From the NCBI RefSeq assembly GCF_057098645.1, contig NZ_CM169472.1: a stretch of DNA of 64,000 bases; one strand, given 5' to 3'. Shown here piece after piece: positions 4,843-38,189 of the stretch (position 1 is the stretch's first letter; the number at the start of each line of letters is the position of its first letter). Under the pieces are notes generated by a model that ran no database searches, was not told the DNA's origin, and saw nothing but the letters and a program-made list of their open reading frames with translations. The translations under genes and the position numbers were made by a program.

Positions 4843-4920
4843 TGCGTATCCGCGCACGTCGAAGATGAAAAAGGCGTGCTACATTGACGGCAGAATCCCT
4901 TTATGGAGTATCCACGCGTT

Positions 4921-5907
4921 ATGATACGTTTCGCTGTGATTGGTACGAACTGGATCACTCGCCAGTTCGTCGAGGCCGCCCATGAGAGCGGTAAATACAA
5001 GTTAACCGCCGTTTATTCCCGCAGCCTTGAACAGGCCCAGCATTTCGCCAATGATTTTTCTGTCGAGCATCTGTTTACGTCGCTGGAAGCGATGGCGGAA
5101 AGCGATGCCATTGACGCGGTGTATATTGCCAGCCCGAATGCCCTGCACTTTTCCCAGACACAACTTTTCTTTAGCCACAAAATTCATGTGATTTGCGAGA
5201 AACCACTGGCGTCGAATCTGGCGGAAGTGGATGCCGCCATTGCCTGTGCGCGGGAAAATCAGGTGGTGCTGTTTGAGGCATTTAAAACCGCCAGCCTGCC
5301 GAACTTTCATTTGTTGCGCCAGGCGCTGCCGAAAGTCGGCAAACTGCGGAAAGTTTTTTTCAACTATTGCCAGTATTCCTCGCGGTATCAACGTTACCTG
5401 GACGGTGAGAATCCCAACACCTTTAATCCGGCATTCTCTAACGGTTCAATTATGGATATCGGCTTTTACTGCCTGGCGTCGGCGGTGGCGTTATTTGGTG
5501 AGCCGAAAAGCGTGCAGGCAACCGCCAGTTTGCTGGCAAGCGGCGTAGATGCCCACGGCGTGGTGGTAATGAATTACGGTGATTTCAGCGTTACGTTGCA
5601 GCACTCAAAAGTCAGTGATTCTGTCCTGGCAAGCGAAATTCAGGGCGAAGCGGGATCGCTGGTGATTGAAAAACTGTCTGAATGCCAGAAAGTATGCTTT
5701 GTGCCGCGTGGCAGCCAGATGCAGGATCTCACCCAGCCGCAGCATATTAATACCATGCTCTACGAAGCAGAGCTGTTCGCTACCCTGGTGGATGAGCATC
5801 TGGTGGATCATCCGGGACTGGCGGTCAGTCGCATCACCGCCAAATTGCTGACAGAGATCCGCCGCCAGACAGGGGTGATTTTTCCGGCAGATAGCGTAAA
5901 ACAATAA
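4921..5907 (+). CDS. ygjR: YgjR, Gfo/Idh/MocA-family NAD(P)-dependent oxidoreductase
   Basis: ORF 4903..5907 trimmed to MIRFAVIGTNWI.. (328 aa); Rossmann GxGxxG-like N-terminus. Confidence 0.85.
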   Translation: MIRFAVIGTNWITRQFVEAAHESGKYKLTAVYSRSLEQAQHFANDFSVEHLFTSLEAMAESDAIDAVYIASPNALHFSQTQLFFSHKIHVICEKPLASNLAEVDAAIACARENQVVLFEAFKTASLPNFHLLRQALPKVGKLRKVFFNYCQYSSRYQRYLDGENPNTFNPAFSNGSIMDIGFYCLASAVALFGEPKSVQATASLLASGVDAHGVVVMNYGDFSVTLQHSKVSDSVLASEIQGEAGSLVIEKLSECQKVCFVPRGSQMQDLTQPQHINTMLYEAELFATLVDEHLVDHPGLAVSRITAKLLTEIRRQTGVIFPADSVKQ

Positions 5908-5934
5908 TTGTTACCGTAAAGCAGTGTAAAAGGC

Positions 5935-6190
5935 ATGTAACAGACCATTGACTGGGTGAATGGTCTGTCATACTTTGTTACCTGCAAAGGGGAGTAACTT
6001 CATTGCCGGTCGATCGTCATTACGATGTGTGAAAAATCACATCCGGTCACCGGGCAACCCGAAAGGAATACGCAGACGTATTCCTTTTTTGTTGTAAGTG
6101 AGACCTTGCCGGAAGGCGAGGTCTATGCATAAAAAGCAGCGGCTGACGTCTTCCGACGTTGGCCGTTTTTTTTATGTGTAAGGAACTTCT
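5935..6190 (+). promoter_or_regulatory. alx 5' leader (pH/Mn-responsive element, yybP-ykoY-type riboswitch; the SraF sRNA region in K-12)
   Basis: About 280 bp non-coding leader upstream of alx, ending in a hairpin plus T8 run and RBS aaggaa; identity from recollection of the K-12 locus. Confidence 0.6.
6138..6173 (+). terminator. Leader intrinsic terminator/attenuator hairpin followed by T8
   Basis: gcagcggctgacgtcttccgacgttggccg followed by tttttttt, 18 bp before the alx ATG. Confidence 0.55.
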
Positions 6191-7156
6191 ATGAATACTG
6201 TCGGCACGCCGTTGCTATGGGGCGGATTCGCTGTTGTTGTCGCCATTATGCTGGCTATCGACCTGTTGTTGCAGGGGCGTCGTGGGGCACATGCCATGAC
6301 CATGAAACAGGCTGCGGCCTGGTCGCTGGTCTGGGTGACGCTGTCGTTACTGTTTAACGCCGCTTTCTGGTGGTATCTGGTGCAAACCGAAGGTCGCGCC
6401 GTTGCCGATCCACAGGCACTGGCCTTTCTCACGGGTTATCTGATTGAGAAATCGCTGGCGGTCGATAACGTCTTTGTCTGGCTGATGTTGTTCAGCTATT
6501 TCTCCGTTCCGGCGGCATTACAACGTCGCGTGCTGGTGTATGGCGTGCTCGGGGCGATTGTTCTGCGTACCATCATGATCTTCACAGGCAGCTGGCTGAT
6601 TTCGCAGTTCGACTGGATCCTGTATATCTTCGGTGCCTTCCTGCTGTTTACCGGCGTGAAGATGGCGCTGGCCCATGAAGATGAATCAGGCATTGGCGAC
6701 AAGCCGCTGGTGCGCTGGCTACGCGGTCATTTGCGCATGACCGACACCATCGACAACGAGCATTTCTTTGTGCGTAAGAATGGATTGCTGTACGCCACAC
6801 CGCTGATGCTGGTACTGATTCTGGTGGAATTGAGCGACGTGATTTTTGCCGTGGATAGCATTCCGGCTATCTTCGCCGTGACCACTGACCCGTTCATTGT
6901 GCTGACCTCAAACCTGTTTGCGATCCTCGGCCTGCGTGCGATGTATTTCCTGCTGGCGGGCGTAGCAGAGCGTTTCTCGATGCTCAAATATGGCCTGGCG
7001 GTGATTCTGGTATTTATCGGTATCAAGATGCTGATTGTCGACTTCTACCATATTCCGATCGCCGTCTCGCTGGGCGTGGTGTTTGGCATCCTGGTGATGA
7101 CGTTTATTATCAACGCCTGGGTGAATTATCGGCATGATAAGCAGCGGGGAGAATGA
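6191..7156 (+). CDS. alx: Alx, TerC-family inner membrane protein (putative Mn exporter)
   Basis: 321-aa multi-TM ORF matching Alx/YgjT. Confidence 0.9.
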
Positions 7157-7261
7157 TCCGCTGTATATTAAGCCATTACTAGAGATAACTCATTCCAGAC
7201 AAAGGTGAGCTATTAATTATGTAATCGGCTTATAGCTCTTTACAAAAAGACCGCACGGGTG

Positions 7262-7458
7262 TTGGTGGCGTCAAAATCGCCGAAGCGTTCCCTTGCGCCC
7301 GAACCGGTAGCCGCAAGGGATAAGCTGAGGGAACCGCGCAGCGGCGATTTTGTTCGCCAGAGCCTGGGGGTGCAGGGGGCGGCGGCGATTGGCCGTCCCC
7401 TGCGCGCTCCTTGCGCCAGTGACTTTATATGGCATAGCACATTAAAGGAGCGCAACCG
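7262..7458. repeat. GC-rich nested-palindrome element in the alx-sstT intergenic region (possibly a boxC-like repeat)
   Basis: Arms ggcgtcaaaatcgccg (7267..7282) and cggcgattttgttcgcc (7342..7358); inner cccttgcg (7290..7297) and cgcaaggg (7312..7319); embedded in AT-rich flanks. Confidence 0.4.
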
Positions 7459-7711
7459 TTCTCATATTCCAAATAGTTTTGCCCATATGTTATCTAATCA
7501 GCCTTAGTAGCCAGTCCTTCCCTCTGTTTATGTCAAATAAATGTAACCATTAAGTTGCAAAACATGAGCTCTCTTTAAAATCCAGCATTTTTCGCTTCCC
7601 GAAGCTGTAACTTTCCTTATACTCGACCTTGCAAACACTTTGTTACATCCTGAAAGATGCGTCGACAGAACGCACCAGGGATGTGCGACAACACAATGAA
7701 AGGATCGAAAA

Positions 7712-37811: not shown

Positions 37812-38189
<378 letters not shown>

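Follow-up and report, generated by a model that had tools for sequence, protein, structure and literature searches.

In the 64,000-nt stretch of DNA analysed here (the window), the region from 5935 to 6190 directly precedes an open reading frame at 6191–7156 that encodes a protein of 321 amino acids. This protein is Alx, a TerC-family Mn2+ exporter and the gene product whose regulation is at issue: it scores 401.9 bits on the profile TIGR03718 ('R_switched_Alx'), whose cutoff is 246, and the gene is annotated by RefSeq both in an identical O145 genome and in K-12. The genes ygjQ and ygjR lie upstream of alx and sstT lies downstream; all features of this locus described below are on the + strand. 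A search with a 286-nt query gave a 100% match in E. coli O145 str. RM9872 and located the leader in 5419 of the 5426 complete E. coli genomes, with identities of 95–100%. The alx leader is already known and is among the best-studied riboregulators of E. coli; the copy here is essentially the K-12 sequence. RefSeq carries no RNA feature at the alx leader in the O145, BL21-derived or K-12 records. For the upstream gene ygjR (4903–5907), the longest open reading frame encodes 334 amino acids from the ATG at 4903 and the RefSeq coding sequence of the identical O145 genome and of K-12 has 987 nt (328 amino acids); the two differ only in the choice of start codon.

Published nucleotide positions in the alx leader are numbered from a mapped start site (PMC12153347, PMC3874183). 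Placing +1 at 5983 reproduces the nucleotide identity at all 16 published anchors (A11, A37, C127, A131, A132, G134, C135, A137, G138, A149–A153, C155 and A156), whereas any other offset fits at most seven. With this numbering, the two sites of termination known from published work, nt 110 and nt 190, map to about 6092 and 6172, in the two U-tracts of the leader. The original prediction had treated the whole of 5935–6190 as leader; this holds for 5983–6190, but the first 48 nt or so (5935–5982) lie 5′ of +1 and contain the promoter and an upstream hairpin.

The putative alx promoter (5948–5974) comprises a −35 element, TTGACT (5948–5953), and an extended −10 element, TGtCATACT (5966–5974), assigned from their conservation and their spacing to +1 at 5983. 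Conservation of TTGAC and TGnCATAnT extends over about 70 Enterobacterales leaders. A promoter scan of the region missed the alx promoter, owing to the 15-nt spacing and the extended −10 element. The −35 element is bracketed by a perfect 10-bp inverted repeat (ACAGACCATT / AATGGTCTGT; 5940–5968), which is not part of the leader. Across 76 species, 68.8% of the alignment cells in this repeat are paired, as compared with 33–43% for slid controls, and its covariation score is 0.354 as compared with 0.208 for shuffled alignments (0/500 shuffles). As RNA, the repeat folds with −19 kcal/mol (z = −2.6). Compensatory changes in the arms between genera suggest an RNA hairpin rather than a protein operator, and the repeat is probably a terminator-like hairpin at the end of the ygjR transcript that overlaps the alx promoter.

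The transcribed leader differs from that of K-12 MG1655 in only two places: position 6037, which is T (U in the RNA) here and A in K-12, and the T-run before the ribosome-binding site, which has eight T here and seven in K-12. The promoter spacer differs at a single base (5956, G here and C in K-12). The two loci share the gene order ygjR-alx-sstT, the promoter and the start site, and they are identical in the aptamer helices, L1, L3, P5, P6 and the ribosome-binding site. Position 6037, which is C in other Escherichia, falls in the 8-nt loop of P3.2 in the conserved register, and the change is therefore neutral; an alternative in which the T forms an extra P3.2 base pair was rejected on the same grounds. 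The leader had been predicted to be intact in this strain, and this is the case, one loop base and one extra T being all that separates it from the K-12 leader.

When folded in isolation, 5983–6110 forms a three-way junction. The Mn2+ aptamer of the alx type (5984–6109), delimited by this fold, by covariation and by a custom covariance model, consists of P1.1 (5984–5990/6104–6109), L1 (5991–5996, with 6100–6103; core GGGGAGUA), P1.2 (5997–6000/6096–6099), P3.1 (6006–6016/6044–6053), L3 (6017–6023), the P3.2 hairpin (6024–6043) and P4 (6054–6095). The L1 core GGGGAGTA, at 5989–5996, is the conserved L1 loop of the yybP-ykoY class, whose adenosine is extruded and which P1.1 and P1.2 flank, and is invariant in 70/70 aligned leaders; GGGGAGUA is also seen in the mntP alignment. 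L3 has the form expected of the class, a 7-nt one-sided loop between P3.1 and P3.2; its sequence, UCAUUAC, departs from the family consensus ACAUACU and matches the published alx-type L3 consensus. P2, and with it a four-way junction, is absent: in all 70 leaders, fold and alignment place just a 5-nt linker (6001–6005) between P1.2 and P3.1. Published work describes the alx-type aptamer in the same terms, as a three-way junction without P2, with a long P4 that holds an internal terminator and a divergent L3, UCAUUAC (PMC12153347). The interior of P4 is lineage-specific and hypervariable. Here it contains the first intrinsic terminator of the leader (hairpin B, or TB; 6061–6090), found by the terminator scan and absent from the original prediction: a 12-bp hairpin at 6061–6088 (ΔG −13.8 kcal/mol) followed by TTTTTTGTTG, with a U-tract that runs through 6085–6090.

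What the original prediction had described was the region next to alx, where it placed a GC hairpin at 6138–6166, a run of eight T and a ribosome-binding site just before the start codon. These elements are all present. The 11-bp stem, two of whose pairs are G-U, runs from C6140-G6165 to C6150-G6155 and is closed by the loop UUCC (6151–6154); the T-run is exactly eight T long (6166–6173). The hairpin is real, but position 6166, given as its end, belongs to the T-run as the first T. Two more pairs, A6138-U6167 and G6139-U6166, can lengthen the stem, and the consensus scan reports a 13-pair terminator-like site at 6138–6167. The isolated hairpin has a ΔG of −17.2 (core) to −19.9 kcal/mol. Further downstream lie the Shine-Dalgarno sequence AAGGAA (6180–6185), a 5-nt spacer and the alx start codon (6191–6193, as in the list of open reading frames); AAGGA is conserved across species in the alx leader alignment. 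The sequence from 6120 to 6193 reads ...AAAAAGCAGCGGCTGACGTCTTCCGACGTTGGCCGTTTTTTTTATGTGTAAGGAACTTCTATG. The hairpin and T8 together (6140–6173; stem 6140–6150/6155–6165) are the intrinsic terminator P6, also called hairpin D or TD, a stable G+C-rich hairpin directly followed by a U-tract, as indicated by the terminator scan, ΔG, covariation and published termination. Termination at nt 190 has been reported for the K-12 leader, and P6 has been named an intrinsic terminator (PMC12153347, PMC3874183). There are two terminator-like sites in 700 nt as compared with 0.8 ± 0.8 in shuffles, a difference that on counts alone is only suggestive.

Between the aptamer and P6, the minimum free energy (MFE) structure contains a further hairpin, P5 (hairpin C; 6101–6124), which belongs to the OFF state. 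In P5, 6101–6110 pairs with 6115–6124 around a GGAA loop, taking up the 3′ strand of P1.1, and hence P5 competes with the aptamer. The loop positions A131 and A132 agree with published probing (PMC3874183). A mutually exclusive helix of 9 bp pairs CGGAAGGCG (6110–6118) with 6147–6155, the latter being the 5′ arm and loop of P6. This ON-state helix is stem C/D of PMC3874183 and P5/P6 of PMC12153347. The leader thus has the full set of elements of an alx-type PRE leader, with a three-way-junction aptamer, P5, the P6 terminator and the mutually exclusive C/D helix, placed 5′ of the alx ribosome-binding site.

To assess these helices across species, we collected alx loci from 80 Enterobacterales species, in 71 of which the L1 core GGGGAGTA occurs 172–249 nt 5′ of the ATG, and scored covariation on explicit structures in a 70-sequence leader alignment. 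The first structure scored comprised P1.1, P1.2, P3.1, P3.2, the base of P4 and the helix 6110–6118/6147–6155. Of its cells, 98.5% are paired across the 70 species, as compared with 31–43% with slid partners, and 16 pairs show compensatory changes; none of 500 shuffles matched any measure. The compensatory pairs are distributed over P3.1 (5/10), P3.2 (5/6), the P4 base (3/5) and the ON-state helix (3/9), such that P3.1 and P3.2 together are backed by 10. The pairings of P1.1 and P1.2 are possible throughout yet invariant, and give no covariation evidence either way. The ON-state helix on its own is 99.4% paired, with three compensatory pairs. P5 is 91% paired with no compensatory changes, since its 5′ arm is at the same time the P1.1/L1 strand, which does not vary. 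In P6, 95.1% of the stem is paired and 3/11 pairs show compensatory changes, while its extension by the A-tract and U-tract is 73% paired.

The thermodynamic preference of the leader is for the OFF state. The 218-nt leader has an MFE of −97.6 kcal/mol (z = −9.5), and 0/200 shuffles were as good. The unconstrained MFE structure is the published inactive conformer, with P3, P4, P5 and P6 formed and the L1 strand paired to 6180–6190; specifically, 6180–6182 and 6185–6190 pair with the 5′ strand of L1/P1.2 (5990–6000). This L1-to-RBS pairing is 72–79% paired across the 70 species with no compensatory change, and as a model of which bases would mask the ribosome-binding site it is not independently confirmed. 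Enforcing P1.1/P1.2 together with the C/D helix dissolves P5 and P6 and gives −75.2 as compared with −97.6 kcal/mol, a cost of about 22 kcal/mol. Since the ON fold is this much less stable by nearest-neighbour energies, we reasoned that selection of the active state must happen during transcription, with ligand and tertiary contacts stabilising it.

We conclude that 5935–5982 contains the alx promoter and that 5983–6190 is the 208-nt alx 5′ leader (PRE/SraF), an alx-type yybP-ykoY Mn2+ riboswitch that alternates between OFF and ON structures; we put the probability of this reading at roughly 0.93. The original prediction of a pH- and Mn-responsive alx leader of the yybP-ykoY class is thereby supported, given the near-identity to the K-12 leader, the agreement at 16/16 anchors, and the presence of both the L1 core GGGGAGUA and L3 UCAUUAC. 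The hairpin that it singled out is hairpin D/P6, the second of two terminators, which is conditional and forms one arm of the switch. Established here are the sequence anatomy, the near-identity to K-12, the way in which the helices are conserved and covary, and the thermodynamic preference for OFF; the responsiveness to Mn2+ and pH, the sites of termination and the part played by pausing come from the literature on the K-12 allele. Specifically, PRE has been shown to hold two terminators, TB and TD (PMC10197570), and stem C/D, TB/TD and the pause sites have been described for the alx leader (PMC3874183). Pairing of the ribosome-binding site with the disrupted P1.1/L1, a terminator in P4 and the P6 terminator have likewise been described (PMC12153347). 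Translational fusions were induced 68-fold by alkaline conditions and about 10- to 21-fold by Mn, and induction was lost in ΔPRE (PMC10197570). Mn2+ binding and Mn2+-dependent activation have been reported for the K-12 allele (PMC12153347, PMC10197570), and the alkaline response requires that Mn2+ be bound (PMC12153347). A single loop base separates the K-12 aptamer from the one in this strain. Native RNA polymerase is required for the alx switch, and pausing matters (PMC3874183, PMC12153347). We infer that this strain's T8 allele functions as T7 does.

Taken together with the K-12 literature, these structures suggest how the leader may operate. At low Mn2+ and neutral pH (OFF state), P5 (6101–6124) would capture the 3′ strand of P1.1 and P6 with T8 (6140–6173) would form; RNA polymerase would then terminate at P6/T8, giving an RNA of roughly 190 nt, the size of SraF. 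In read-through transcripts, the ribosome-binding region would be occluded by the L1/P1.1 strand, now free, and by the extended stem of P6. In the ON state, with Mn2+ bound and favoured by alkalinisation of the cytosol, P1.1/L1 would remain docked and CGGAAGGCG (6110–6118) would pair with CGUCUUCCG (6147–6155), dismantling both P5 and the P6 terminator; the Shine-Dalgarno sequence would be freed and Alx, the Mn2+ exporter, would be translated. The choice between the two states would be made during transcription and hence be kinetic.

Could P6 and T8 instead be a plain intrinsic terminator, ending ygjR read-through or forming the 3′ end of a trans-acting sRNA SraF, with no role in alx switching? 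P6 has all the features of a canonical Rho-independent terminator: a G+C-rich stem of 11–13 bp, a tetraloop, a U-tract of eight and an upstream A-tract (6131–6135) that mirrors the U-tract. In addition, a terminated product of roughly 190 nt is made in vitro, according to published work. However, P6 differs from canonical terminators in lying inside a 5′ leader with a start codon 18 nt downstream, and in having a 5′ arm with a conserved alternative partner, from which we conclude that the terminator is conditional. Covariation of the P6 5′ arm and loop with the P5 loop, in a mutually exclusive helix, is not expected of a simple terminator. Moreover, P6 lies 3′ of a conserved promoter and is fixed directly 5′ of the alx ribosome-binding site in the 70 species, ygjR has its own candidate hairpin at 5940–5968, and deletion of PRE abolishes control by Mn and pH (PMC10197570). 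We consider a plain terminator very unlikely.

A yybP-ykoY riboswitch would be expected to match the corresponding Rfam covariance model, RF00080 (manganese / yybP-ykoY), and a search with it was the check put forward with the original prediction. With cmscan and Rfam 15, RF00080 had no match over the window at the gathering threshold, so that the alx leader does not reach the 45 bits set for this family. At E ≤ 10, RF00080 again had no match, either in 5850–6260 or in the 133-nt aptamer alone (5980–6112), and cmscan at these settings gave chance matches only, to terminator-like sRNA models. The sole Rfam match at gathering level within the window is RF00010, the RNase P RNA gene rnpB at 37812–38188 on the − strand (318.6 bits, full length). 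As a positive control, RF00080 found K-12 mntP with 41.6 bits (E 8e-9). It had no match in the K-12 alx leader itself, nor in the alx loci of 20 other genera. We conclude that the missing match refutes nothing and that the model, not the locus, is limiting; the identification stands, since the validated K-12 alx leader is missed equally. The published difference in architecture (no P2, long P4, divergent L3) accounts for the blindness of the model (PMC12153347). The canonical E. coli Mn riboswitch, mntP (locus L004, 962–1058), at 41.6 bits is itself below the 45-bit gathering threshold and, with alx unmatched, both E. coli Mn riboswitches are missed at default Rfam cut-offs.

We built a custom covariance model of the alx type from 67 alx-type aptamers (117 positions), with the window sequence included in the training alignment. 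This model gave 120 bits at 5983–6110, its sole match in the window at E ≤ 1, a score that includes the contribution of the window sequence to training. At the mntP locus, the best match fell on the true mntP aptamer but with 5.7 bits and an E of about 3, which is not significant. We therefore rejected the reciprocal search as evidence of homology: between the alx-type and mntP subclasses, covariance models show family membership in neither direction. These results have a methodological implication, in that Rfam 15 RF00080 and RefSeq annotation are both blind to the alx-type three-way-junction subclass, and a pipeline that reads 'no covariance-model hit' as refutation would wrongly drop an experimentally validated riboswitch. 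The leader had also been proposed as a positive control for annotation; it is intact, but it makes a poor control for annotation based on Rfam or PGAP, given that both RF00080 and RefSeq fail to see it.

The alx leader and the E. coli mntP riboswitch have in common the L1 core GGGGAGUA, a 7-nt one-sided L3 in the P3 hairpin and a P1.1 helix that acts as the switch, and both control translation of an Mn2+ exporter. They differ in that mntP has P2 (four-way junction) and an L3 of ACAUACU, and lacks internal terminators and a pH response; they also differ in their scores, mntP having 41.6 bits on RF00080, where alx has no match, and only 5.7 bits on the alx-type model. The Mn2+ aptamers of Lactococcus lactis yoaB and Xanthomonas oryzae, for which crystal structures are cited in PMC12153347, likewise have two coaxial legs, an A-minor contact by an L1 adenosine and an L3 metal site. 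These aptamers are four-way junctions, whereas the alx type is a three-way junction with a long, variable P4 that contains a terminator in Escherichia. A chimera with the alx L3 is reported to have been crystallised (PMC12153347).

A second alternative is the original model for PRE, in which the leader is a pH element that acts through RNA polymerase pausing only and does not sense Mn2+, its resemblance at L1 and L3 being vestigial. The failure of RF00080 to recognise the alx leader and the non-significant reciprocal search would both be in keeping with this model, as would the missing P2 and an L3 that departs from the family consensus, and pause-site mutants do alter expression (PMC3874183). 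Nevertheless, L1 GGGGAGUA and the 7-nt L3 show little or no variation in 70 species, which implies selection on the metal-binding core. The model is also contradicted by published Mn data on the alx leader and by a crystal structure, cited in PMC12153347, of a chimeric aptamer with the alx L3 (PDB 6CC1). We regard pausing without Mn2+ sensing as highly improbable, and retain the Mn2+ riboswitch as the preferred reading. A leader peptide from the ATG at 6125 (18 codons, TAA at 6179–6181), whose translation would be coupled to terminator formation, was rejected as next to inconceivable: the short open reading frame spans the terminator and ends beside the Shine-Dalgarno sequence, but its frame differs among E. 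coli strains through the T7/T8 polymorphism, an ATG occurs between P5 and P6 in just 32/75 leaders (it is missing in 43/75 species), with inconsistent lengths or no stop, and the sole upstream SD-like sequence, GAGG at 6117–6120, lies unusually close to the ATG, ending 4 nt in front of it.

The T8 form is a common allele within the species, though not the majority one. An exact match to 6125–6200, including T8, was found in 900 of 5228 matching E. coli genomes (about 17%), O145 and O157:H7 strains among them; the majority of genomes have the one-base-shorter form, T7, as in K-12. Other genera mostly have T5-G-T4-6 after P6. It is conceivable, though on balance doubtful, that the length of the U-tract tunes termination, and thus the basal level and the Mn/pH inducibility of Alx, between lineages.

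Across species, the alx leader is a hotspot of rearrangement. The leader of E. albertii has a REP/BIME-like insertion of ~180 nt inside P4, and ERIC-like insertions are found in P4 of Siccibacter and of 'Enterobacter' pulveris (two copies), between P6 and the ribosome-binding site in Phytobacter diazotrophicus, and in the P6 region of Erwinia persicina. In Atlantibacter sp. RC6 the P3/P4 core of the aptamer has been lost, and in Rouxiella aceris the P6-like terminator alone is retained. Downstream of alx, the alx-sstT spacer (region 7157–7530 of the window) is 555 nt long here as compared with 398 nt in K-12, and the first ~365 nt 3′ of alx have no homology to K-12. The core of this segment, at ~7287–7456, is an unannotated dispersed repeat, present in 5425 of 5426 E. 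coli genomes with 1–5 places in each (median 2) and 80–95% identity; about 1659 genomes carry the full spacer insertion at the alx-sstT locus.
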